Positions 3,311-63,899 of a stretch of 64,000 nucleotides of DNA are shown here, one piece after another. Positions within the stretch are counted from its first letter, which is position 1; every line of letters begins with the position of its first letter. The notes beneath the pieces are model-generated. The model was not told the origin of the DNA, did no database searches, and was given only the letters and a program-made list of their open reading frames with translations. Both the position numbers and the translations under genes were made by a program. Location of the stretch: positions 2,790,001 through 2,854,000 of the forward strand of contig CM102283.1 in assembly GCA_046563655.1 (NCBI GenBank), read 5' to 3'. Source of the DNA: Yuukianura sp. NJ FZ-2021 (lineage: Eukaryota).

Positions 3311-4618
3311 TCATTCCCAGACTTGGGGCAACTTGAGACAATAAGCTTGGAGTGACTCTTGAAAACTTGATAGAGGTCGCATCGTGGTCTCCGGCATTGG
3401 AATTTTAAACGTTGGAAGAAAAGAGCCGGGAATTTTGACGACCTTGACTGCAGCAGCGTAGAAAATGTCATATGAGAGGGCCAATGGAAGTGTAGCGGCG
3501 GTAAAAATTTTGTAAATTTTGAATTGTCGGAGTTTCGCTCGCAAACTTTTCGCGTCAGCCGTAATCGCTTCTTCGAAAACTTTCAAAAATGGTTCTGGAA
3601 GTTCACGCCCTTCTGCTTCCGTAAATGCTTGAATTAACTCACACTTTCGACAAATCCAGTCCAGCTGATCGTCGTCGTCAATGTTGTTCAGGAATCCGTC
3701 GGCGGGAAAAGTTTCGTCACATGATTCCATGACGTCACATGACTCCATGACGTCCATGACGTCATATAACTCTGACGTGTCACGTGACTCTGACGTATCA
3801 CGTGAGTCTGACGTATCACGTGACTCGGAATACGTCATCGGACGACGACAAGGTTCACATTTGATGAAACCGCGGCGTTTCAAATATCCCAAAGCATCTG
3901 AATATCCCGCGTGGCAAATGCTGGCCAGTACTTCTGGTCCAGGCGGCATAATTGTGTGACTCAGACGCACAAAATTTTTTCTTGAGATTTCAAGCGAAGT
4001 GTGATTAAAAGTCATGATGACCCACGGTGACAAGCTTGGACCATCGCGTGGACAAATGTCTGACTCACCACAGAACGGACTCACAGTAACTGTAGACTTG
4101 TTTTGAATCAGCTGATTCCCGCCTGTTGAAAACCCACCGTCAATGTACCTCTCACCGCGGAATCTGGGTGGGACCAACCCGACGAAAAATGGAATCGTCA
4201 CGGCACAAATGAGAGCGTCAATAAATTCGGCACGAGAGTTGAATTCCGAAAAGACTACTTTTTGCATGTCACGGACGCGGGTCATTGCTATGAAAACTTT
4301 TCCGGATACTAGAAGATGAACGTCCGGTGGGAGACAGGATTCGAGATGCTGGCGGACACTTCCAGCGACGTCACTTGAGGGACTCAGAGCACCAATCACT
4401 TTGTTTCTTGTTGCCACACAAGTTTGGATCCACATTTTGGCGCCATCGGGAATTGGAATTCCAGCGACCAAGAAAGTACTTGCGAGGGCACCAGCACTTG
4501 ATCCGGACACTGTGTTTAAAAATTGTGGAACATAGTGTTTGAGACACGCAGCGACTCCGAAGTGGTACATTCCCAGGAAACCACATCCAGCAAAGGAGAA
4601 GTTCACTTCTTCTGACAT
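3311..4618 (-). CDS. Patatin-like phospholipase / triglyceride lipase (PNPLA2/brummer family), single coding exon
   Basis: Motifs NFSFAGCGFLGMYH (oxyanion loop), GSSAG (GxSxG nucleophile), RYIDGG (catalytic Asp) and TVSPFCGESDICP. Confidence 0.92.
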   Translation of the reverse strand: MSEEVNFSFAGCGFLGMYHFGVAACLKHYVPQFLNTVSGSSAGALASTFLVAGIPIPDGAKMWIQTCVATRNKVIGALSPSSDVAGSVRQHLESCLPPDVHLLVSGKVFIAMTRVRDMQKVVFSEFNSRAEFIDALICAVTIPFFVGLVPPRFRGERYIDGGFSTGGNQLIQNKSTVTVSPFCGESDICPRDGPSLSPWVIMTFNHTSLEISRKNFVRLSHTIMPPGPEVLASICHAGYSDALGYLKRRGFIKCEPCRRPMTYSESRDTSDSRDTSESRDTSELYDVMDVMESCDVMESCDETFPADGFLNNIDDDDQLDWICRKCELIQAFTEAEGRELPEPFLKVFEEAITADAKSLRAKLRQFKIYKIFTAATLPLALSYDIFYAAAVKVVKIPGSFLPTFKIPMPETTMRPLSSFQESLQAYCLKLPQVWE

Positions 4619-5783: not shown

Positions 5784-8700
5784 TTTTTATATGTACAAAT
5801 GGCGCAGACTGAAATGACGCAGCTGAAACCTCGTGCCAATTTCCAGTAGAAGAGACTTATCTGGAATCCTTGGTCATCAAATTGCTAAAACTCAAATATC
5901 AAACACATGTACACACAACATGTTACTTTACGCACAAACAAAACATCATACTTTTTTGGAACAAATAATTAGCACTTTAATGAAACACAATCACCTGCCA
6001 AAGGCAGGTTGGGAAAAGGAGTAGAATTTATGTTAGGTTATAGTATGAATAACTCATAGAGATCTTTCCCTGAGGGTAAGCTTCCCAAGATTGAGCAGGA
6101 GTTACCGCGTTGAACAGCAAGACTTATTCGTTGTAGCAAAAAGGCCGTAGCTCGTTTATCTCCAGATGCTTCTGACAGCCGATGTCCAATTTGTTTCAGT
6201 AGACGAAGGCCTTCGGATCCGAATACACCTGTAGTCTCGACGGCAATGATGGATACGATGAAGCGAGATTCTAGGTCACGATAGAGATGATGCTTGTGTG
6301 TCTCTGCTAATTCGGCTGCATGACCATAGTGGGAAGACGACGTCGAAAGGTAGGAATTGGCAAAGGTGTCACGGCAAGTGAAATCCCAGGTGAGGCAGCG
6401 TCCAGAGCTCCAAGGAATAAGCGTTACGCCGTCTGGCCGTTTACCATCTGATCTACAGCAACCGACAGGTTCTTTAATTGACGGAAAACCGGCGGATTGT
6501 AACGATCTGAAGATGATGTCGTTGGCTGCGTTGTGACGAGAGTGTCTTCCGGCGCTACGTTTACAGCTTAGGCCATGGAGGCCGTTGCTTGATACCGGAG
6601 CACCACATGAGCAGATATGAGGTTGGCATATATCAGCTCCTAGGCGGAGGGCACAAGATATCCTAAAAGATTCGTCCGAAAGTAGAGTTCCAAGTTGTCC
6701 AGAGGGAATTGCGTGTAACCAATCTCCCGAATGTGGTGCAGCGGCAGCCAGTAGTCTTGCTTTGTCGATAAGAGTTGAAGAGTTCTGGAGAAGAGAAGAA
6801 GAAATTTGCTTGAAGACTTGAATTTCCCAGAGGTTTTGTGATTTTTCGTCCTGGGGAATGACAAAGCCCAATTGAGACCAATTGAGTAAAGCCATATCCA
6901 TTGAATTGTCCAAAGGTGACAGGGAGGACGGAAGAAATGTAGAAATTAGCTCCGCACAACTATGAACTGATGCCAAAAATGAGTATGTAGCGCAGTCCTT
7001 AGCGTGGCGAACTCCTAATCCGCCCAAGTTCACCGGTAGACTTGACTGAGACCAAGCGTGCGAAGATAAAGTAGAGTTGAGAATCGATTCCATCACTGCA
7101 CGTAGCGCACAGTCGTATGCATCGAGAAGATCAGTTTCCATAAACGAAGGAGCACATCGGAGGAAATATAGAAGTCTCGGGGTTGAAATTGAAGCTCGAA
7201 GCAGGTAGAACGCGATGTGGGCTGGTAAATCCGACAACTTGGATGAGAGTGACTTAAAATTCTCTGTTTTGCATTTGAGAATCCGACGAGACGATTCTTT
7301 GAAAAGAGGCGCTCCCAAAAGTTCAGCTTGATCAGATTCAGGAAAGATGATGTCAGGAGAAACAGAATGGAATGATTGGACGATTGAGCGGGATTCATCT
7401 GCGTCTGCGCTTAGGATGATGGCTTCACATTTCTTCAGGTTGAGTTCTAATCCAAACGAAGAGGCTTCTCTTTGGATGTACTTGAGATTTTCGAGAACGA
7501 CCTCCGGAGTATCGGCAATCGTTGCGTCGTCCAAATACCAGATGTTGAAATCAGTGGTTAGTGAGGAGGCCAATTGGTGAATGGTTAAAGCAAAAAGAGC
7601 AGGACCAAGGGGATCCCCCTGCTGCACTCCTAGTTTTGATTTGATGCAAGCAGAGTCGTAGTAGAGATCCGATTCATGCAAATAAGCTTCAGAGACGAAG
7701 TTGTAGACGTCGGGAAGTAGAGTCTTCACAATGTCCAGCATACGGTCTCTTCGAACTACATTGAAGGCATTGCGGAAGTCCATCTTTAGTAGAACCTTGG
7801 CAGAGACATGGTTGGCATTACAGAAGATTCTGGCAGCGTGGGCGACGGCTTCAGCACCATTCTTGATTCCAACTCCAACTTGGATTGGGCTTAAAGATGA
7901 AGTAATGATATTCAACGAGTGAGATAGAATAAGTTTAGACACGAGGCGTCTCCACGTAAGGCCAATTGCGATAGGGCGAATGCCTCCTTTTTCTTTTGGA
8001 TTGCTAATAACGTTGCGCCGAAAAAAATTCGTCTCACTTCATCGGGAAGAGAACCATTTGTGATGAAGTTACACAATCCAGAAATTGATGATAGAAGAGC
8101 TGCTCCTTCATCTCCTGACGACTTTGAAGTTAGTTCCTTTAGAATCTGTGGTCGAAGGGAGTCCAGACCTCCTGCAGATCCATTTGGGAATGACGAGATG
8201 GCTTTGATGATGTGACGATGTTCAAAGATAACCTCAGATCTCGGAGGTGCCGCAGGAAACGAGGTTGGTAGAGGATGATCGGGATGCAACTGTTGCAGAA
8301 TTTCCAAAGTATTTGAGTATTTGGCGGCTATGCAGTCTTCGGAGACAAGAATACGAACTGCACCACGTATATCCCCGTCGGCTAGTTTAGATTGAATGAC
8401 CTTTGAGGAATTGCGGTGATGTGAGGACGGATTATTGCGATGAGAGAACTGCTTGAATTGATGATGGGAGATGTTTGCAGGCGACCCAGAAGTGATACGG
8501 CTAGCGTTTGTCTTCACCCATTTGGTAAGATTTGTGACAGCATCTTCTTTTGACGGGATAGGGAGAACTTGGTACGGGAAGTAGAATAATTTTGCCCAAG
8601 AATCTGTAGAGTTCTGCTCGATTGCTTGGTCGATGATGGTGGACAGGGCAGAGGCGGTCGTTCGTCTTGCTCCTTTTGGAATGTGTTTGAGTGTGGACGT

Positions 8701-9260
8701 AGATTTTCTCAAGTCAGCAAGCTTTAGCCCAAGAGAAGTTGTAGAGATATCCTCATTGGGAGAGGCGGACCAAGTGATGCCGAAGTAAGATTGTTCAGAA
8801 TGTTTGCGTCCGCCGGCTCGTGTTTTGGTAATGGATGGAAAAGCTTTTAATAGTTTCAATCCAATTGTCGCGTCGGTTAAAGGTTTCATCTTCACTTCAG
8901 AGCAAAATGAATGGTATTTGTCTTTTAGATCTTGTTTCTTGATCAAAGCTCCAGAAGCCTCCTGAAGGTTGTTCTTGATCCAGTCGTCAGTTAGTTTCGA
9001 AATTTGAGATTTTCTTAGACACCCAGTGGATGACGTAGTAGATGACGATGATGTAGGTGATGAACCACTGAACTCCAATCCGCAGTCATCGGATGATGAC
9101 CCGATTCCGGGGTTCTCCGTGGTTGTGTCCAGGGTGTTATCGCAAATCAGATTGATCGTTGAATTTGCTGGAAAATTGAGTTGGATGTTTGTTTCACCAA
9201 ACATCATACTTGTTTTTTTTTATAAATACACATATTACAATATAATATTATATTATAATT
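5784..9260 (-). mobile_element. Non-LTR retrotransposon, CRE-like clade (RT plus restriction-like endonuclease), one frameshift near 7990; boundaries approximate
   Basis: ORFs 7912-9207 and 6038-7942 join by a -1 shift into ...AIQKK/GGIRPIAIG... RT motifs are KMDFRNAFN, GVQQGDPLGP, WYLDD and LP..LGGLG. A zinc knuckle (CSCG...HGLSC), RHN and the RLE motifs RPDG...WD...AE..K follow. A short A-rich 3' end lies near 5784. Confidence 0.9.
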
Positions 9261-9284
9261 AACATTCTTTTACAAAATTTTCAC

Positions 9285-9298
9285 GTTACCGTGACAAC
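9285..9298. promoter_or_regulatory. RFX X-box-like motif upstream of CCDC61
   Basis: GTTACCGTGACAAC matches the X-box pattern GTTNCC-NN-RRNAAC and lies about 200 bp upstream of the CCDC61 ATG. Confidence 0.6.
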
Positions 9299-9497
9299 CA
9301 GAACGTTAAAAAAACATGCTGGTATCAAATGTATTTGGGAAAAGTTGTTAAAACTTTGCCATGCAAATTTGTGGTTTTGAGTAAAAAATTTTTTTGGGTA
9401 AAACTCAAGTGTTTAGCAATATTGCTTTTGTATAGGATTTGATACGAGTCAAAAGTTAAAGCAATTCTGAGATTTGGCGCGCTTGAGAATTTTTAAA

Positions 9498-12400
9498 ATG
9501 GAGAAAGCTAAAGGAGTGACTAATTCTGTTGTGAGTACTTGGACGTTTCGAGATGGAGAGCAATACGTAATTTCATTGGAAGTTACAGAGAATCCAAAAG
9601 CAGTTGCAATCCAAATTGCAAATAAAATCACTTCCGAAGAATGGAGTTGCCACTATGATTCCAAATGTGAGTTTCAAATTTCCCTCCAAAAAAAACTAAA
9701 AGTTTTAAATCTTTGACCTTTGACCTTGACTTTCTCTTTGTCCAAATCAGATATAGAAGAGCTGAGTCAGAGAACTGGAAACTACAAAACTTTTGACATT
9801 TTTATTGCTATGATCAAATCTGCTCTGCTCAAGGTAAAATTTCATAATTTTTGAAAAACTCATTTTCACTTTTCATTCAAAAATGAAAAATGTGAAAAAA
9901 ACAATGAAGATGAAGATGATTAGGAAGGAGTGGTAGGAATTGGCTTCTTTATCCTTGATGAATCAAGTTAGTGAAATTAATTACACTGTAATTCAGCATT
10001 GAAATTTTACGAATCCGCATTGCTTTGCAATTCTTCACACCCAGACGCGTGCTTCTTTACAAAAATTTCACTTAACGATTCCCATTCATTTCAAAAACTG
10101 AAAACATGAAAATCATAATAATAAAAATGAAATCCATCCTACTTTTGACAGAATCTGAGCAAAAGTGATAGTTTGTGCTTCTGAAATTATGATCGAGAGG
10201 AGTGGTTGACTTTGGCCAGACGATCTTCTCGTGCTCAAACTTCAACTTTAAGTGCAAAAGTGGGTCACATGATTGATTCAAACTGCTTTAACAAGTGCGC
10301 GCCAACTTTCAATTTCGATTTAAAAAGTTAACTTGAATTATAACCTTGTCAGTTGTGATTAATGAGATTCGACTAAAAGAGGAAAAGGAGAGATTAAGTT
10401 AGGTTGATTGGATTAACAAAAGAAATTATAGGCAGTGTCTGCACATGAGCAGACTTAAAATCTTACACGTACATAAGTACACTATGTTATACATTCATAT
10501 TAATATATTATAAATAAAGTAATAAATATAAATATAGATTAAGTTTTTTGACAAAATTTTTTGATATTTTCAGAGCACAGAGTCGGTTGAACTTGACTTA
10601 ATGACGTACGAAGACTTGAAGGCGCTGAAATCCAAGCGATTCAAAAATGGCTCCAAATTTGAATTCGCTTCGCCTTCAAAAATTGCCGACTCTTCTGCTA
10701 CAGTAGATGCAAATTCAAATCCGTCAAATCACTTGTTAAAACGCAAGTATCTGATAGTGAAATACGTGGCAGAGTTTGACAGGTAAAAGGTCAAAGGTCA
10801 ATGACCCCAAAAACTAATCAGGTCAAAGGTCAAGGTCATTGACCTTTATTTGTTTCAGTGTCCATTATCCACTGGCCTTGAGTCATACTAAGGGCCCTGA
10901 CCCCTTCATAATGGAGCAGCACATTAAGAAACTGCAAGGAGAGGTCACGTATCTGCGAACGACCAATCAGGAGCTTGTTGACAGTTTGAAAACTCTTGGC
11001 TTTGACTCGTCGAGGCTTGAAATTCAAAATGGGCGCCAAAATTTAAATTGTGGCGGGAGTGCACCTAATTTTGAAATTTCGAATCTTCTGGAAGCCATTG
11101 AGTCCTTGGAGAGAAACTGTGCCACAGAGAGAATGGAGCACTTGAAGGAAATGGAGACCCTGCAAGGGGAAAATTCAATCTTAAGGGACCAGGTACTTAA
11201 AGGGGTCAAGGGATTCCCTTAAGCTTTTTTTAAGAAAGAAAGTCCCGTTTTGTTTTGAAAAAGAGTTTTTGTTTCTTGAACTTTCGAAATTTCATTCAAG
11301 GATTCTTTTGAATTTTAAAAACGGTCAAGGTTGGGAAAGTTTTTTTTGAAAAAAAAAATTATGATCAGACGCCAGACCGCATTGACGGCCGTCTGCGGTG
11401 TGAAATAGCCGCGAGGGAAAATTTGAAAATGCAGCACGCGTTTATTTGGTGTGTACAAAACAATAGAAAGTTTGACGAACCAATTGTTACAATTTGAAAA
11501 AAAAAGATGTGAGAAAATTTTTCAAAATGAAAATTTTCAGGGCCAATTTTACTTTATGAAGTTTGAATGTGGCGCTTTTACTTTTTTTTTTGCCCGGCGG
11601 TGGTCAGCCTACTAACCGAAATAATCACAATAAGATCAGTCACGTAAATGAAACCACATGAGATTAAATTTTGCAACTGATATTCTATCTGGTCACTTTT
11701 GAATGTTCCCACGCATGCCCAAAATTTTACCAAAAACAATTAGTTTTTGAAAAAGTATGAAAATTTCAAGCATGAAATTTCGAAAACCGAAACACGACAG
11801 ATTCAAAAACTGAATCACACGTTCAAAAAACTGACAAAAAAGTCGAATCGCCGAAAAAATTTGACTTCTCAAAGAAAACTTTATAGATGCTGGTCGGAAA
11901 TACGAAAAATGGGGCAAGAAAATGTTGAAGTTCAAAATCTTGAAAACTTGGAGCCAGATATAAAAAGTAGAGGCACGAAAATTTGAAAAACCCTTTAACT
12001 GAAACTGCATTTTTAAGATTTCAGCGCTTCAGCGATCAGAAGAAGAGCTGAACATGCAGATCACGAGACTGGAGAGGATGAGTATGGGTTACGGAGTGCG
12101 TCGTCAGCAGTCGGGGCAATCGTTCGGCACTGTTCGGGAAAGTGTTCGGACTCAACGACCGTCACGTGAGCGTGATCGTGCTTCAAGCGACATGCGTAGC
12201 AGACACAGTTCGAGTAGTTCCGAATTTCGACGGAAACTTACGACTGCAGTCAAGAGTACAAGTACTGCACAGCAAACGAATTTGCCTGGCGTCAGAAATC
12301 GCTCCAGAACGCTGTCACCAGCTCCTCCTCCTAAGTTCAATCCAACGTCTTACGTCCGTGAAAAAAAGCAGCGCCAAGACCAAATTGCTCAACTCAGGTT

Positions 12401-45113: not shown

Positions 45114-45397
45114 CCTACCGACCGTAATTTCGATAAATCAAGTCTAATTAATTAATTAGTCAATTAATCTCTAACCAACGTTCAAATTAAATCAAAATTC
45201 AATTCTCCAAACGATTTACGAGTTCCCAAAATAACAACACAGATGATTTTCAAATTTTGACTTCCCACGCTTTTAATTTTCTCACTTTGCCCCAAAGGTT
45301 GCATGCCTTCGAATAAATGGAGCTCCGCATACTTGTCATGCTAGTTGGGGCTTCGCCCTATTCCCGTTCTATCTTCCAAATATTTTTAATCCACCGG

Positions 45398-45411
45398 TTA
45401 CTATGGCAACA
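45398..45411. promoter_or_regulatory. X-box-like motif in the divergent TIPRL/MFS intergenic region
   Basis: GTTACTATGGCAAC is a close match to the RFX consensus. Confidence 0.5.
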
Positions 45412-55310: not shown

Positions 55311-58300
55311 ATGGGACAGCGGCCTTCATCCAACCCTCGACACGACACAGTCATTCTACACTCAAGCAACGGAATTAACGATTTGCTTCAGCGTATTCCC
55401 CTACTTGGAGGAGTGGAAATGGAATCTCATCCTAGACAAGGCAGACGGTCAAGTTCAAGTGACGAAAATTCATTATATGAAGTGGAGATTTGTGACTCAA
55501 AGGTACTTTGGGCTAAAAGCGACAGATAAGATACGCAATTCGGAAGTGTTGACATATTGAATTATTAATTAACTAAGCATTGATTTGTTGTTTGTAGGAA
55601 GCACCTCGTCGAAATGGATCAATCATTCACATTCAACTCCCACCTCCACAACCTCCACGAAAACAATTTCCAGAAGAACGAATAAAGACTGTCGTTGCCT
55701 TCATATGGCTAGCTTTCAACTTTGTGATTACCACCGTCTCTCTGGCTCTGACTCACGAGAGATTACCGAATCCAAAAGAAGTTCAGGCCTTGCCGGATAT
55801 AATCCTCGACAACGTTACGACCATAGACTGGGCCCTTACAGTCTCTGAAGTGATTCTCTCCATGGAGACTTTTGTCGCTTTCTTCATCCTGGCAGTTCAC
55901 AAGCATAGGTAAGCCTAACCTAACTATGCACTCTAATTTGATTAAAGTGAAAACCACTGTCGTTGCATGCCGAGAGACTATTAAATCTGGAACTTGCACA
56001 AATGGGGTTGTTTGTGGAATTGCCCATGCAACTTCCACTAGGTTTTTCACTTTAAACTTCCCGCTAGTTTTTAGGTTCAAATTTACCTCAATTTTAGGCT
56101 CCTTAGCCCCTCCCTCTACTACGCAGTTAGATTTGTCTTTTGTTCTGTTTTGCTCTGTTAGCCCTAAGTCGATCTTAGCACGTTGTTAACAGAAGTACCA
56201 TGCTTTCAGTCTGCTAAGTACTCGCTCTCTCACCTTTCAATCAACAATTAATTGTTTCTCCATACTAATTAACTTTCTTTAATTAAACGTTGGGTTAAAA
56301 GCCCTGATTAATCTGAACTTTCAGATTCTAGTTTTGCCTCAAAGTTATTCCTAAAAAGTTCAGTTTGAAAGTTACTGAACATTGTTTTTCAGATTATCAA
56401 AAATTAACTCTAATTAAAGACTCAGTGACTCCTTATCAGTGAAATGGCCTCTACTTCATCCTCCGACGTAGTGAGCTTCGGTTCTGCGACAGCTGGACTC
56501 GGTCATGTCAGGAAAACCATCGTTCGATTCCAGACGTCTTTGGATCCTGCAACATGGAAACCGGCCACTGTTCCCGAAGTCACCAGTAAGGAGAATCGAC
56601 TAAGCGAAATCAAAACTGAGTTCAACTACTGGAAACGTCATCTAATCTGTGCCAGTACTTCCTCCCAATCATTGGATGACATTGAAGATACACTCATCGA
56701 GTGTGAAGATCTTCTGGAACAGGTACAATTCACCCTTTGCACTGTTAGTGATTCAATTTGTAAACATGACGAGGATCAACCGGGTCCTCCAAGAATTCAA
56801 CATCACCCTAATTTTGAGTCTGAGTTTAAGCTCGAGAAAACTAAACCACCGACGTTTAATGGCGATTACACCGATTGGCAGAACTTCTCGGATCTCTTCC
56901 AGGCTGCCGTTATCCAGAATCCCAGAATTTCCGGTGCTCAAAAGCTCGTCTATCTCAAGAATTCACTGACTGGTGAAGCTGCGTCCATCGCTTCTTCATT
57001 CCCTCTCAATAACCTCAGCTTTAACGAAGCATGGGAATTGGTCGAAAAACGATTTAACAAAAAACGAGAAATTGTTTTTTCGCACCTAACTAAACTATTC
57101 TCTCTTCAGTCAGTTTCAGATACTTCCAAAGGAATCCTGAAACTGGTCGACACCATCAACCAGTGCCTACGTTCCCTCAAAATTCTCAACGTTGATGTCA
57201 CCCATTGGGACATTTTCATCGTCTTCTGGGCCCATTTGAAACTCGATCCAGAGACCAGAAGACAGTGGTTACTGACCACCGATGATGAACTTCCTACTCT
57301 TCCCCCGTTCTTGGAGTTTCTTGAGAAAAGAGCCAACGCCCTTACTCCAACTTCATCATCGTCATCAAAGGGAAAGTCAACCACTTCAATGTCCACTGCT
57401 CATCACACTACTACAGCACAAACCAAAACCAAGTTCGCATGTCCACAGTGTCATGACAAGAATCACCGGATCTTCAGATGTCCGGATTTCCTAAAGTTAT
57501 CTCCTCGCGACCGATCGGCTGCCGCCCGCGAGAAAAAACTGTGCACCAATTGTTTGCGCTCAGATCATCAACTTCGTGAGTGTAAAAGTGAGGGGGTGTG
57601 TGCCAAATGCTCTAATAGGCATCACACTTTTCTACACTTCGACACTCATGTCCCACCTCTTCAGCCGAAACCAAACGGGTCAACTTCCGGCCCATCTTCA
57701 AAAAATTCTTCAGCGGCAAGAACGACACCCTCAACATCCGGCTCAAGCGCATCTCCAGACGAACACGTCGAATCCCATCATTCGTCTTCTACGACTACCA
57801 CTACCAAGGTGGTTCTGATGGCGACTGTCGTCGCAAGAGTCATTGACCAGAATGGGGACCGTCAACTCTGCCGTGTATTTCTGGACCCCGGCTCCGAATC
57901 CAACTTCGTCTCAGAAGCTTTCGCCGATCGTTTCAAGTTGAAGCGGCAGAAGTCATGCATCAGCGTGACTGGAATTGGAGGATCATCCGGAGGCTCTACC
58001 CGTGGTGTGGTAAACTTCAAATTACTCTCACGGTTTGATAATTTTGTTTTTCCAGTCAGAGCTCTCATCTTGCCTCGTCTCACTGGACTTCTTCCACGCT
58101 CCAACTGTCAGGGGTCATTTCCTCACTTGGATGGTCTTTCTCTCGCTGACCCGGAATTCAACATTCCATCATCAATCGACATCTTACTTGGAGCAGAGGC
58201 GACTGCTCAAGTACTCCTGCCTGGACTGAAAATGGGACTCCCTGGAACTCCTACTGCCCAAGACTCTCGTTTCGGCTGGTTCCTGACTGGCACGTCCCCA

Positions 58301-61300
58301 TTAAGCCCAGGTCACACCTCGACTTTCTCTGTCACATCATGCCACGCCTCTTGTGATCCAAACGATCAGTGTTTGGAAGCATCACTTGAGCGATTTTGGG
58401 AATTCGAGGATCCGTCGCCGTCGACACCTCAACTTAAGGCTGATGATCTGGAAGCTGAAAGCCACTTCCAAAGTACCTTCTCCCGCGACTCAACCGGACG
58501 GTACCAAGTCAGCCTCCCATTCAAAGATTCTGGGGATCTGGGGGAATCCTTGAAGAAAGCTACATCCTGCTTCCTCTCACTGGAACGTCAACTAGACAAA
58601 GACCCCACCCTCAAATCAGCATACCACTCACAGATCCAGGACTATCTTGCCAGAAACTGGGTCGAGAAAATTCCGGAAGCTGAACTTTCTCCGAATCAAA
58701 GGATCAAGGTCACATCAGCCAATGGAACAGAACTCTCTCTCCGTCCGTTTTACTTACCTCATCATGTGGTTGTAAAACCGGACAACACAACGACTAAATT
58801 CCGGATCGTCTTCAACGCTTCAGCTAAAACGAGTTCCGGACAGTCTCTCAATTCTATTCTGCATTCTGGTCCGAAAATTCAGACAGACCTTCATCCTCTG
58901 CTCATGCGCTTCAGAACTCATCCAATCACTCTATGCGCTGACATCGTGAAATTTTACAACCAAATTCAAGTATCTCCTTCACACTGCAACTTCCAACGTT
59001 TTCTGTGGAGACCAGACCGGGGTGAACCATTCACTCATCTTCGCTTTCTCCGATTGACCTTTGGCGTAACCACTGCTCCTTTCCTGGCAATCCGCGTTCT
59101 ACGCCAACTGGGGGAAGAATACAGGGAAGACTTTCCTCTCGCCTACGCTTCAATTCAGAACGACTTCCTCGTGGACAACCTACTCTCAGGCGGAACCACA
59201 ACTGAAGAAGTCATCCAACTGAAGTCTCAAATCGAATCAGTCTTATCAATTGGCAAGTTCCCTCTTCAAAAATGGGCTTCTAACTGCCCGGAAGTACTCG
59301 AGTCACTTTCACCAGAAGAGCGGGAAAACTACTCAATGGACATACAAGTGGACGAGTCGGTCAAGACCATTGGTCTCTTCTGGCACCCTGCCTCAGATTC
59401 ATTTGGCGTCAAGATCACTCCACCACCGTCTCTTTCTTCATTCACCAAACGTGAAATCCTGTCACATGTGGCTCGGATCTTTGACCCTCTTCAATGGCTC
59501 TCTCCAGTCACCATTACAGCCAAAATCCTTCTCCAGTCCCTCTGGAAAGAAAAAATCGGATGGGATGACCCCATTCCTCAACATTACGTCAAGAAGTGGC
59601 TCAAATACTCTTTGGAACTTGAACTTCTTCGAAATTTCCGCATCCCTCGATGTCTCACTTTCGCTACTCCTGCATCCTCCACTGTGACCCATGACCTCAT
59701 CGGCTTCTGCGACGCTTCAAATCTCGCGTACGGTGCCTGCGTCTACTTACGGTCCAAGTGCGAGGACGAGGTGAAAGTACTGCTCATCGCAGCCAAAACC
59801 AAGGTTGCTCCTGTCGGCGGAGAAACGACTCCCAGACTGGAACTCTCCAGTGCCGTACTCCTTTCACAACTTGTGAACTACGTCTACACTGCTCTCATCT
59901 CTACTAAAATTAAAATTTCGTCTGTTCTCTGCTTCACAGATTCTACTGGAGCACTTGGACAACTCTTTTCCAATGAGAAGCAGACAGTCTTCGTGGCCAA
60001 TCGCGTCCGGAAGATCAAGAACAGTCCAGTCACCACCCGTTGGTACCATGTACCGGGAGAGCTGAACCCTGCCGACTGCTGCTCAAGAGGAATCTCACCA
60101 TCCAACTTTCTCAACCATCCACTCTGGCTCCACGGACCAGAATTCCTCAAGGCAGAAGATCTACCCCCTCAACCATACGCTGAAAATGTTGCAACTTTCA
60201 TAGCCTCACTGGGAGCTGGAGCAACATTCGCCTCATGTGGAATCTTTCGCCTCATCGAGTCTACTCCCTCCTTCACAAAGATGAAGAGGCTTCTCGCCTA
60301 CTGGATCAGACTCCAAAACAACAACCGAAGAGGAGCGATGCCGACGTCTGGACCGCTCACTTCAGCAGAACTGGAACAGGCTCAACTTGCCCTCATCAAG
60401 GAAGTCCAGAAGGCCTGCTTTCCCGAAGCAATCACTTTCCTAGCCAAGAAGAAGCAGACTAAAGGGAACATCAAATTCCTATCTCCGTTCTTGGACCACA
60501 ACGGAATCCTTCGCGTAGGAGGCAGACTCCAGATGTCGGCACTCGACTTTTCAAGCCGTCATCCAGTCCTTCTACCAAAGTGTCATTCCAAGCCAACTTC
60601 AACCGAAGACAGAATCTTCAGTCATTTCGTCCTTGCTGTGGCTCGTCACTTCCACGAAGCAAACCTCCACGCTGGACCGAAACTCCTCCTCTCGCTCATC
60701 CGCTCGGAATTCTGGATTCCACGAGGACCCGATCTCTGCAGCAGGATCTTCAAATCCTGCGTCATCTGCTTTAAACAGAGACCTCACCACTCCACTCAAA
60801 TTATGGCACCTCTGCCCACCGCTCGTGTCACTCCGGACTTCCCGTTTCTGAAAGTTGGCGTGGACTACGCAGGTCCACTCAAGATTGCCCTCATTCCAGG
60901 ACGGAAGCCACGCCTACTTGACGCCTACGTTTGCGTGTTCATCTGTATGGCCACCAAGGCCGTACACTTGGAGTACGTCGGAGGACTCTCCACTCCCGAC
61001 TTCATTGCTGCTCTCCAACGCTTCTGCGCCATCCGGAACACACCAGCAGAAATCTACTGCGACGGAGGTCGGAACTTCCTTGGCGCTAAGAACGAGATGG
61101 AAGCCCTTCAAAAGCTGCTGTCGTCACCACAACATCAGCACAAAGTTACACTCTTCGCCACTGGAGAGAAGATCAATTTCTTCTTCAGCCCCCCTTACGG
61201 ACCACATCACGGAGGACTTTGGGAGGCGGCTGTCAAGAGCATGAAGCTCCATCTCCACAGAATCATTCAAGGTCACCACATTTCACTGGAAGAATTCGTG

Positions 61301-63899
61301 ACTCTGCTCGCTCGCACTTCAGCTGCACTCAATTCCAGACCATTGACGCCTGTCTCAAATCACCCCGACGATTTCCAGGCACTCACTCCATTCCACTTCC
61401 TGTCTCTCCGTGCTCCTAAGTACATTCCGGAAGAGGATTTGACTTCAATGAAGTCACACCGCAGCCGCTGGGAACTTGTCCAGCAGATGGCGCAACATTT
61501 CTTCAAGAACTGGAGCTCCGACTTCCTGCAGTCTCTCCAGCAAAAACACAAGTGGCTCCAAACTCAACCTAATCTCGCAACTGGAATGATGGTGCTCGTA
61601 CAAGACGTCGACTCATCATTCAAGCACAAGCGCTGGATTCTGGGACGAGTAGAAGCCACCTTCCCTGGGGCCGACGGAAGAGTCAGAACCTGCGACGTTA
61701 GAATCCCGGTTGACAACTCCGACAAGAAAGGACCCCCTACCAAAATCTATCGACGCCCCATCACTCGACTTGCTCCTCTACCCATCGATGATGACGTCAC
61801 TGCAGCATTCTCCAACATCAACTAGATGTAGATTTGCTTTTCAACTTCCAGTAGAGCTTAGAGTTAAGTCCTAAATTTAGATTTTCTTAAAATTTAGGTT
61901 TAACTTAATTTTAGCCCTATCTCTTGTAAAATGTAAGTTTCTTGCGCTTGCGCGCATTTTCACAAGCAACTCCGTTTTCGTTTCCACTTTAATTTTCAAT
62001 TTTTCCTTGGTGGATTTCCTAAATCCACCAACGCCGGGGAATGTTTGTGGAATTGCCCATGCAACTTCCACTAGGTTTTTCACTTTAAACTTCCCGCTAG
62101 TTTTTAGGTTCAAATTTACCTCAATTTTAGGCTCCTTAGCCCCTCCCTCTACTACGCAGTTAGATTTGTCTTTTGTTCTGTTTTGCTCTGTTAGCCCTAA
62201 GTCGATCTTAGCACGTTGTTAACAGAAGTACCATGCTTTCAGTCTGCTAAGTACTCGCTCTCTCACCTTTCAATCAACAATTAATTGTTTCTCCATACTA
62301 ATTAACTTTCTTTAATTAAACGTTGGGTTAAAAGCCCTGATTAATCTGAACTTTCAGATTCTAGTTTTGCCTCAAAGTTATTCCTAAAAAGTTCAGTTTG
62401 AAAGTTACTGAACAGGGGTCCATCTCCATAAAAAAATTGCCACTGGAGCTGTTTTTTCTTTGTAAAACTCCTGGAGCGAGACAGTACTCACTACAGCAAA
62501 ACCTCTCTTATAGAAACTCCCTCCCATACCGTAAACTCTCGTTTATGGTACCGGTTTCTGGGAAAGAAGTTGTTAGAGAGCTTTTGCTGTAGTGGTTTCC
62601 TGAAATTACGAAAATGGATTCTCGTGATAACCATTACGAGTTAGATCGATATTGATGAGAAAATGCTATTTTTGGCTGGTCGATTCTCACGGGAAAACAT
62701 CACCCGACCTTCACTTTTTATAGTCTGGAATCTACTACAGAAAAAGCACTTTTTAGCACTAAGTTATGTTTGACGGGAACTGATTTATTGATTACGTTTT
62801 CAGGTGGATTGTCTTCCGTCGTGTCTTCTTTATTCTGGGATGGCTCTATCTAATGAGATCTTTCACAATGTACGTTACCGTGCTACCTGTCGCTTCTAGA
62901 TCATATGCCCTCCATGTCTGTGCTCCCAAAGCAAACAACACTTCGCCATTTGTAATTGCACGAAGAGCCATTCAGCTGATGAGTGGATTCGGACTCTCTA
63001 TGAATGGACATCACGTGTACTGTGGAGGTAATTTGCTAATTGAATTACAGTAAAACTCCTCGTTGTGCAACGTTTTCAAGGGTTGTAATTGTAAACTCTC
63101 AGTTAAACTTTCCAAGTATTGAAGCGGTGATTGGTGTGTACTTTATAAGAAACTTTACGGTAACACACGAAATATTTCGCAATGAGAGGTTTTACTGTAT
63201 TTCAGTTTAGCTATGAGCTGCATTATGGTATAAGGGTAATGCAATTCCGTTTTTGTACTAAAATCGATATTGTTCCATTTGCAGATTACATGTACTCAGG
63301 TCACACAGTTGTGCTCGTCACTTCCTTCCTCATCATTCAAGAATGTAAGTAAAATATTCCTGCTCTCCGTAAAATCAAATCGTTTTTTTTTTTCAAAATT
63401 TTTGTTTCTTTCTACTCGATTTCAATCGATTTTTCTCGTTGTTTGGTTTTCAGACAGCCCTAAAAGGTATCACATTTTGCACTGGATAGCAGGAGCTCTG
63501 AGTGTCGTTGGTGTTGTAATGATTCTGAAATCACGAGGACATTACACCATTGATGTGCTAGTGGCCTACTATGTAACCACGCGACTCTGGTGGACATACC
63601 ACACCATGGCGAATAATATCATCCTAAAGGTACCATGTCAAATTCAAAATTTTGAAGATTTTTGGACATTTTGAATGAAAATATGTCTGGATTGAGCAGT
63701 ATTTTGAAAATTTTCGATTTTGTTTTTGAACTAGAATTACTCTCCTTCCAATTACTTGGCGAGGATATGGTGGTTTCCAATTTTTCAGTACCTGGAGGGC
63801 AATGTGGGTGGAATTGTGCCCAGAAACTATAACTCTCCGTCTGCCTGTCTCTCAAAACTGCATGGACGTCTGTTTCGTCGTAACAACGTTCGTAGCTGA
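55311..63899 (+). CDS. Sphingomyelin synthase family (phosphatidylcholine:ceramide cholinephosphotransferase)
   Basis: Exons about 55311-55502, 55598-55908, 62804-63027, 63284-63343, 63454-63629 and 63735-63899. Motifs HERLP..LPDI, HKHRWIVFRR, MRSFTMYVTVLP, CGDYMYSGHT and HYTIDVLVAYY. Confidence 0.92.
56009..62414 (+). mobile_element. Full-length BEL/Pao LTR retrotransposon inserted in an SMS intron
   Basis: 373-bp LTRs TGT...ACA at 56009-56381 and 62042-62414, identical by eye. 5-bp TSD GGGGT (56004-56008, 62415-62419). Purine tract GGGGAA precedes the 3' LTR. Confidence 0.97.
56444..61825 (+). CDS. BEL/Pao gag-pol polyprotein (1793 aa, uninterrupted)
   Basis: Gag (PTFNGDYTDW) with three Cys/His knuckles, protease LDPGS, RT (YLPHH, RIVFNAS, LTFG, LVDN), RNase H (FCDAS, PRLEL, TDS, NPAD) and integrase (H..H..C..C, VDYAGP, CDGG, GGLWEAAVK). 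No env ORF. Confidence 0.96.
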   Translation: MASTSSSDVVSFGSATAGLGHVRKTIVRFQTSLDPATWKPATVPEVTSKENRLSEIKTEFNYWKRHLICASTSSQSLDDIEDTLIECEDLLEQVQFTLCTVSDSICKHDEDQPGPPRIQHHPNFESEFKLEKTKPPTFNGDYTDWQNFSDLFQAAVIQNPRISGAQKLVYLKNSLTGEAASIASSFPLNNLSFNEAWELVEKRFNKKREIVFSHLTKLFSLQSVSDTSKGILKLVDTINQCLRSLKILNVDVTHWDIFIVFWAHLKLDPETRRQWLLTTDDELPTLPPFLEFLEKRANALTPTSSSSSKGKSTTSMSTAHHTTTAQTKTKFACPQCHDKNHRIFRCPDFLKLSPRDRSAAAREKKLCTNCLRSDHQLRECKSEGVCAKCSNRHHTFLHFDTHVPPLQPKPNGSTSGPSSKNSSAARTTPSTSGSSASPDEHVESHHSSSTTTTTKVVLMATVVARVIDQNGDRQLCRVFLDPGSESNFVSEAFADRFKLKRQKSCISVTGIGGSSGGSTRGVVNFKLLSRFDNFVFPVRALILPRLTGLLPRSNCQGSFPHLDGLSLADPEFNIPSSIDILLGAEATAQVLLPGLKMGLPGTPTAQDSRFGWFLTGTSPLSPGHTSTFSVTSCHASCDPNDQCLEASLERFWEFEDPSPSTPQLKADDLEAESHFQSTFSRDSTGRYQVSLPFKDSGDLGESLKKATSCFLSLERQLDKDPTLKSAYHSQIQDYLARNWVEKIPEAELSPNQRIKVTSANGTELSLRPFYLPHHVVVKPDNTTTKFRIVFNASAKTSSGQSLNSILHSGPKIQTDLHPLLMRFRTHPITLCADIVKFYNQIQVSPSHCNFQRFLWRPDRGEPFTHLRFLRLTFGVTTAPFLAIRVLRQLGEEYREDFPLAYASIQNDFLVDNLLSGGTTTEEVIQLKSQIESVLSIGKFPLQKWASNCPEVLESLSPEERENYSMDIQVDESVKTIGLFWHPASDSFGVKITPPPSLSSFTKREILSHVARIFDPLQWLSPVTITAKILLQSLWKEKIGWDDPIPQHYVKKWLKYSLELELLRNFRIPRCLTFATPASSTVTHDLIGFCDASNLAYGACVYLRSKCEDEVKVLLIAAKTKVAPVGGETTPRLELSSAVLLSQLVNYVYTALISTKIKISSVLCFTDSTGALGQLFSNEKQTVFVANRVRKIKNSPVTTRWYHVPGELNPADCCSRGISPSNFLNHPLWLHGPEFLKAEDLPPQPYAENVATFIASLGAGATFASCGIFRLIESTPSFTKMKRLLAYWIRLQNNNRRGAMPTSGPLTSAELEQAQLALIKEVQKACFPEAITFLAKKKQTKGNIKFLSPFLDHNGILRVGGRLQMSALDFSSRHPVLLPKCHSKPTSTEDRIFSHFVLAVARHFHEANLHAGPKLLLSLIRSEFWIPRGPDLCSRIFKSCVICFKQRPHHSTQIMAPLPTARVTPDFPFLKVGVDYAGPLKIALIPGRKPRLLDAYVCVFICMATKAVHLEYVGGLSTPDFIAALQRFCAIRNTPAEIYCDGGRNFLGAKNEMEALQKLLSSPQHQHKVTLFATGEKINFFFSPPYGPHHGGLWEAAVKSMKLHLHRIIQGHHISLEEFVTLLARTSAALNSRPLTPVSNHPDDFQALTPFHFLSLRAPKYIPEEDLTSMKSHRSRWELVQQMAQHFFKNWSSDFLQSLQQKHKWLQTQPNLATGMMVLVQDVDSSFKHKRWILGRVEATFPGADGRVRTCDVRIPVDNSDKKGPPTKIYRRPITRLAPLPIDDDVTAAFSNIN
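63048..63197. mobile_element. Tc1/mariner/pogo-type MITE in an SMS intron
   Basis: TA-CAGTAAAAC...GTTTTACTG-TA ends with TA target duplication; 150 bp. Confidence 0.65.

Follow-up and report, generated by a model that had tools for sequence, protein, structure and literature searches.

The X-box at positions 9285-9298 of the window, which is the whole 64,000-nucleotide stretch of Yuukianura sp. DNA analysed here, is older than the retrotransposon that lies beside it in the promoter of CCDC61, as the TSD of the insertion and contigs of the empty site showed. The retrotransposon is a recent, polymorphic, 5'-truncated insertion of a LINE family that carries an RFX-type winged-helix domain (RFX-LINE), and an earlier note had proposed that this domain might direct insertion next to X-boxes. 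At the other insertions of the family, strict targeting of X-boxes was refuted, and a soft X-box bias, affecting fewer than one in ten insertions, is plausible and not proven.

Structure of the element and of its insertion site

The element is a single-ORF non-LTR retrotransposon on the minus strand, with an RFX domain, an RT and a C-terminal RPDG-type endonuclease. The features of the element and of the host DNA around it, with the basis of each assignment, are as follows.

3311..4618, minus strand: patatin-like phospholipase ORF of the host, divergent from CCDC61 (ORF and profile match)
5941..5953, no strand: 3' copy of the TSD, 13 bp, AAACATCATACTT (repeat match)
5954..6037, minus strand: 3' UTR of the element, containing the family hairpin AACCTGC-N4-GGCAGG at 5994-6010 and a short A-tail
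6038..7783, minus strand: C-terminal part of the ORF, with RT, cysteine/histidine knuckle and RPDG-type restriction-like endonuclease (RVT_1, E 6e-12)
7990..7991, minus strand: frameshift, a one-base gap against an intact sibling (sibling alignment)
8773..8991, minus strand: RFX-type winged-helix domain (profile and fold match)
9197..9198, minus strand: 5' truncation point, beyond which full-length copies extend 352 bp further (sibling alignment)
9199..9211, no strand: 5' copy of the TSD, 13 bp, AAACATCATACTT, containing an in-frame ATG ATG (repeat match)
9212..9284, no strand: host spacer, 88% AT, from the insertion site to the X-box (composition)
9285..9298, no strand: X-box GTTACCGTGACAAC of the host CCDC61 promoter (pattern match)
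9498..10786, plus strand: first exons of host CCDC61 (PDB chain matches of exons)

The endonuclease region had no Pfam match, and the RPDG motif in the C-terminus was read from the sequence; we take it to mark a restriction-like endonuclease, and from the same motif we assume that the element belongs to the CRE clade. The fold of the whole 3' UTR (z -1.16) was not beyond that of shuffles.

Homology to four close siblings stops at 9197. Three of the four begin 352 bp further upstream, at the 5' motif of the family, and start translation at an ATG of their own (+315); the 352 bp lost from the window copy include both the real ATG and an X-box-like block of the UTR. The earlier note had placed the element's start codon about 80 bp from the X-box and had been unable to define a TSD. 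A 13-bp TSD was found at 5941-5953 and 9199-9211, and the ATGs at 9207 and 9204 lie inside its 5' copy, that is, in host DNA; the ATG at 9207 was therefore ruled out as the start of the element. The suggestion that the X-box might belong to the element's own 5' UTR was also discarded, since the X-box lies 73 bp beyond the TSD and the 5' end of the siblings is different.

The comparison with an empty-site allele that the note had recommended could be made, as contigs of two runs join across the element. A contig of run X1 joins 5949 to 9213, with 174 letters on its shorter side (9213-9387), and this empty-site piece differs from the window at 7 letters; a contig of run X4, from a different study, joins 5927 to 9199, with a weak shorter side of 22 letters. 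An empty allele thus exists, and these contigs, together with the position of the TSD and the 5' ends of the siblings, place the X-box in host DNA, outside the insertion. As read from the sequence, the TSD gives the truncated ORF an in-frame ATG (within 9202-9207), from which a host-driven, RFX-containing product of 431 aa may be made.

The chance that at least one of 123 insertions falls within 100 bp of a strict X-box was about 10%, and the lone adjacency to CCDC61 is by itself no evidence for the X-box-targeting or the UTR-promoter reading. The same figure speaks for a reading of pure chance and selection, in which insertion is random in AT-rich DNA, copies survive in repeat-rich DNA, and both the motif excess and the UTR block described below are accidental, whether statistical or phylogenetic. 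We hold this to be unlikely, given the repeat preference and the UTR changes set out below.

The X-box in the CCDC61 promoter

The 14-mer at 9285-9298, GTTACCGTGACAAC, is one of two X-box matches in the window, against 0.04 expected from shuffles. The note had reported this X-box and put it at about 200 bp from the ATG of CCDC61, and both statements held: the distance to the ATG at 9498 is 199 bp, and exons 2 and 4 matched CCDC61 chains exclusively in a PDB search. Exon 1, searched alone, gave no significant match. The patatin-like ORF and CCDC61 are 1622 bp apart from ATG to ATG when the insertion is subtracted. Across the 98.66-Mb assembly the strict X-box, GTTRYYRYRRYAAC, occurs 445 times, against 153 for the reversed control.

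The motif agrees with the restricted fly consensus given in PMC2375033, and at about 200 bp before the ATG of a centriolar gene it lies inside the 500 bp used here as the limit for a ciliary-gene X-box. Regulation of this CCDC61 gene by RFX is a prediction only; the paper itself warns that a degenerate X-box alone is no predictor of regulation. The motif at 9285-9298 is DNA of the host CCDC61 promoter and a predicted RFX site. CCDC61, RFX and the X-box are reportedly named together in one paper.

The second X-box of the window, GTTACTATGGCAAC at 45397-45410, precedes a minus-strand gene, presumably similar to TIP41/TIPRL, by about 290 bp. It is identical to the validated osm-5 box (PMC3245922, Table 1).

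The RFX-LINE family in the genome

A Pfam search of the genome gave 43 RFX matches, of which 39 are elements and 4 are host-gene-like. The ORFs of the elements are 47-94% identical to the window copy, and intact siblings have a single ORF of 1065-1089 aa with RVT_1. The single ORF, central RT and C-terminal RLE of RLE non-LTR elements were all found, as were the 5' truncation, A-tail and TSD that form the signature of TPRT. Candidate TSDs were present in 38 of 49 set-1 cases, and the 30 kept after 8 satellite-borne or doubtful ones were dropped are 9-15 bp long. At their left edge we found A at -4 and -3, C at -1 and A at 0, a loose AAAC/AWTT bias in which positions -1 and 0 are partly an A-tail artefact; the bias recurred at 13 set-2 and 27 set-3 sites. 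The 3' hairpin, AACCTGC-N3-5-GGCAGG with a variable loop, has 120 matches in the genome and is common to most families, and many of the copies that bear it are 3' stubs of less than 150 bp. A search of Rfam with four full-length loci gave no match, and hence no known ribozyme.

Some members of the family depart from this plan. In one family (L054, 3222-6491, and L059) a PHD-like finger precedes the RFX domain; its Pfam match (PF23011, E 0.0016) was below the cut-off, and the finger may be a chromatin reader carried by a LINE. At L074 and L076 an ORF of the window family (~93%) is joined to the 5' UTR of another group and a tandem-repeat linker, a structure that suggests swapping of 5' ends between families. 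In a tandem array on two contigs (L011-L020, L092 and L093, on C17 and C4) a satellite alternates with truncated RFX-LINE copies, at least five in number.

Proteins with an RFX domain plus an RT are present in other data sets (P0003, P0032 and P0059), and no relative with flanks was confirmed among the metagenome contigs scanned. The proteins P0024-P0030, about 1000 aa long, have five RFX domains in tandem, three of them confirmed by Pfam. Among the papers listed in a search of the literature, Repbase and most subscription journals being outside its scope, none describes an RFX-bearing LINE. The window also holds a Bel-Pao-type LTR retrotransposon at 56004-62336, intact-looking, with an ORF of 1793 aa and LTRs that are ~99% identical; its LTR has 19 matches in the genome.

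DNA contacts of the RFX domain

The presence of an RFX domain in the element, which the note had claimed, was confirmed by a match to the Pfam RFX profile (E 6e-11) and by a domain model (pLDDT 82.6) whose only fold matches at E<=0.001 were RFX5 and RFX1, so that profile and winged-helix fold agree. Nine DNA contacts of RFX1, taken from the available text of PMC12311785, were compared in 30 element rows, one of which is a truncated copy. R62 is kept in 30/30 rows, R58 in 28/30 and G60 in 20/30; mostly lost are K45 (2/30), R48 (5/30), R57 (1/30), K66 (0/30) and Y67 (0/30). In 28/30 rows a lysine occupies the next position downstream of K45, and in the window copy K replaces R19. Both wing arginines persist across families whose ORFs are just 47% identical. 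A changed or weakened DNA specificity of the element's domain is likely from these residues.

The residues bear in two ways on a reading in which the RFX domain would recognise X-box-like DNA, whether in the element's UTR block, in a Helentron-type repeat or in host DNA, and would load the RNP there, with the nick made at an AT-rich site within about 250 bp and with feedback on the element's own promoter. The conservation of R58 and R62 favours such soft tethering, and the loss of five of the nine RFX1 contacts speaks against it; in our estimate it is possible, on the doubtful side. The wing of the RFX-plus-RT relative P0003 is near-canonical (RRIG..GNQKYHY), which sets P0003 apart from the elements studied here and makes it a better candidate than they are for true X-box binding.

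Insertions of the family and X-boxes

The test covered 122 other RFX-LINE insertions, 48 in set 1, 27 in set 2 and 47 in set 3. For set 3, 57 were examined among the hairpin matches listed (100 of 120), and 10 of them were set aside, being duplicates on the wrong strand, chance matches, part of another repeat, or ambiguous or identical copies. The tandem array mentioned above was left out of the insertion counts; at one of its ends a strict X-box lies about 380 bp away.

A strict X-box was found within 250 bp of 0/48, 1/27 and 1/47 insertions in the three sets (2/122 in total) and within 1 kb of none of the 48 insertions of set 1; the scan of set 1 also showed no strict X-box near the seven closest full-length or near-full-length siblings. 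The flank test at a fixed distance that the note had called for was negative, RFX half-sites showing no recurring offset at the 30 TSD-defined sites, and the R2-like combination of a conserved target and a fixed distance from the nick was absent. Site-specific targeting at a set distance from the X-box, as by R2 in the 28S rDNA, has only the window insertion and the genuine RFX fold in its favour; set against these counts, it is refuted for the copies of this genome, and we give it almost no credence.

When one mismatch was allowed, X-boxes lay within 250 bp of 4, 5 and 2 insertions in sets 1-3, which is 11/122 against 2.05 expected from a genome-wide count of 3388 such motifs, and the ring from 250 to 500 bp held just 1. 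The 11 motifs lie 33-223 bp from the junctions, on both sides and scattered. Of the proposed X-box-directed insertion, the fixed distance thus fell, 111 of the 122 insertions having no motif of this kind within 250 bp, and a weak form was left standing, X-box-like motifs being in excess by a factor of approximately 4 to 5. The excess and the near-empty ring argue for tethering, as does set 2, where the pattern, already fixed from set 1, yielded 5/27 against 0.43 expected. Three points stand against tethering: roughly 91% of insertions lack a neighbouring motif; the rule of 250 bp and one mismatch was adopted once set 1 had been seen; and set 3, for which the rule was fixed beforehand, gave 2/47 against 0.81 expected (P 0.19, not significant), a result that suits chance.

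Outside the Helentron-type repeat the count was 7/113 against 1.9 expected (P 0.004), three of the seven motifs being weak. Among permuted palindromes 1/100 was as extreme as the X-box. The best matrix score did not differ between near and far junctions (P 0.70), and the near/far ratio of half-sites was 0.98. Seven other promoter motif types showed no excess near junctions, the rare ones having little power, and an AT-rich TATA-like word was the sole other promoter motif with such an excess. Since the excess is specific to full X-box palindromes and other motifs are flat, generic open chromatin is insufficient as its cause. An excess of the k-mer ACGCAA near junctions was dropped, as it had no fixed position. 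In the flanks of L078, L088 and L093 we observed another dispersed repeat, with two X-box-like motifs near the three insertions.

A Helentron-type repeat and other repeats as targets

One repeat of about 1.03 kb, with ~272 copies making up 0.28% of the genome, contains 10/122 insertions, against 0.35 expected. All ten share one orientation, and they come from several subfamilies and mostly have their own TSDs. If insertions are limited to 10% of the genome the excess holds (P 0.003), and at 5% it fades (P 0.06, for the first 75 insertions). The persistence at 10% and the uniform orientation count against pure chance, and ten insertions of a single orientation in a motif-carrying repeat count in favour of tethering. 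However, copies of the repeat without the motif were targeted as often as those with it: a one-mismatch X-box is borne by 4 of the first 8 targeted copies and by 13 of the 24 complete copies in a sample of 40, and the motif is thus not selected among copies. A matrix derived from the UTR block gave 19 matches on the insertion-sense strand of the repeat and 5 on the other; outside the repeat the UTR-derived matrix showed no near/far excess (P 0.3-0.56), which also weighs against tethering. A nick-site matrix was considered as the cause of the preference and rejected, as it explains neither the excess nor the uniform orientation.

The repeat has the subTIRs, GTCY-type microsatellite, 3' stem-loop and T-rich ends of HINE/DINE-1 elements (PMC4067079), as read by eye with the ends counted; unlike those in the available text of that source, it serves here as a LINE target. 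A 156-bp satellite, the unit of which contains GTCTCCATAGCGTC, holds 3 insertions from three subfamilies where 0.22 were expected, and at the end of another repeat a GTAGCTTTAGCTAC palindrome encloses the TSD of L069; both observations side with tethering.

An X-box-like block in the 5' UTR

At +225 to +247, 15/15 full-length representatives from this genome share a block of 14 bp without gaps, RTYNCCWNRNCRAY. These representatives amount to about nine related groups, and their 5' UTRs are 41-50% identical between groups (four pairs compared). The nematode X-box consensus, which we take to be RTHNYYWTRRNRAC, was matched by 9/15 UTRs against 0.42 in shuffles, in seven of them at the +225/+247 block and in two at a second site near +315. 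Under the host X-box matrix the block ranked between 1 and 5 of 367 positions in every UTR; the strict X-box pattern was unmatched in the blocks of all representatives, even with one mismatch. The UTR block ATCTCCATAGCAAC is one base apart from the validated che-11 box, ATCTCCATGGCAAC (PMC3245922, Table 1).

The block precedes the first ATG; its reading frame varies from family to family, and in the window family a stop follows it, which argues for constraint at the DNA level. The note's side idea, that the element might autoregulate or be expressed in ciliated or sperm cells, would gain indirect support from this block, a different site from the X-box on which the note had based it. That it survives in different or closed frames, with substitutions mostly within X-box degeneracy, is evidence against an accidental origin, and its conservation would also accord with tethering. 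Pointing to accident, three other UTR blocks are equally conserved, the X-box-like block ranking 5 of 428 windows, and it is degenerate in some families (rank 5/367 in L069).

Discussion

The RLE-type clades are CRE, R2, R4, NeSL and HERO (PMC4640811). Like the RLE-type LINEs in the available text of that source, the RFX-LINE has a single ORF with an N-terminal DNA-binding module, RT, knuckle and C-terminal RLE, and it shows 5' truncations, A-tails and TSDs; unlike them, it has an RFX winged helix as its N-terminal module where theirs are zinc fingers. Its insertion is dispersed, not target-specific, and its behaviour is closer to that of HERO. The closest precedent is the capture of an MBD by Copia elements (PMC6673714), in which an arthropod retrotransposon likewise has a captured host DNA-reader domain and a bias that is statistical, not site-specific. 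CopiaMBD is an LTR element whose MBD reads methyl-CpG, with binding established by experiment, whereas here the element is a LINE and the RFX reader a predicted one.

On balance, we favour a reading in which a dispersed, single-ORF RLE LINE would insert through target-primed reverse transcription at AT-rich sites, the window copy having lost its 5' end and landed in AT-rich host promoter DNA. The RFX winged helix, standing at the place of the zinc fingers of other RLE LINEs, would most likely act as a low-specificity DNA or nucleosome clamp. The UTR block would most likely serve as a site of an internal promoter that host RFX recognises in ciliated cells or in the male germ line, and the element's own RFX domain may possibly read the block as well. 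The 4- to 5-fold excess would then most likely stem from chromatin opened by host RFX in the same cells and from the preference for the motif-bearing Helentron-type repeat. Several observations count against this reading, namely the X-box specificity of the excess, the excess and orientation in the Helentron-type repeat, which the nick-site matrix does not explain, the kept wing arginines and the strand-skewed matches of the UTR matrix (19 against 5).

It could also be envisaged that the captured RFX domain is an X-box reader twice over, serving the element's own transcription through the UTR X-box and loosely tethering insertion, chiefly to motifs in Helentron-type repeats and satellites, with ciliary promoters such as that of CCDC61 hit as a side effect; we put this forward tentatively, as rather improbable.

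The targets of RLE retrotransposons are set by N-terminal DNA-binding modules, and such elements are being engineered for gene insertion. With a natural swap to a transcription-factor domain that has a known motif, the effect of the module on targeting becomes testable. If a LINE promoter is tied to the RFX programme of cilia and sperm, this would be a direct path to germ-line expression, and if a LINE prefers a Helentron repeat with a bias in orientation, this would be a new transposon-on-transposon target.
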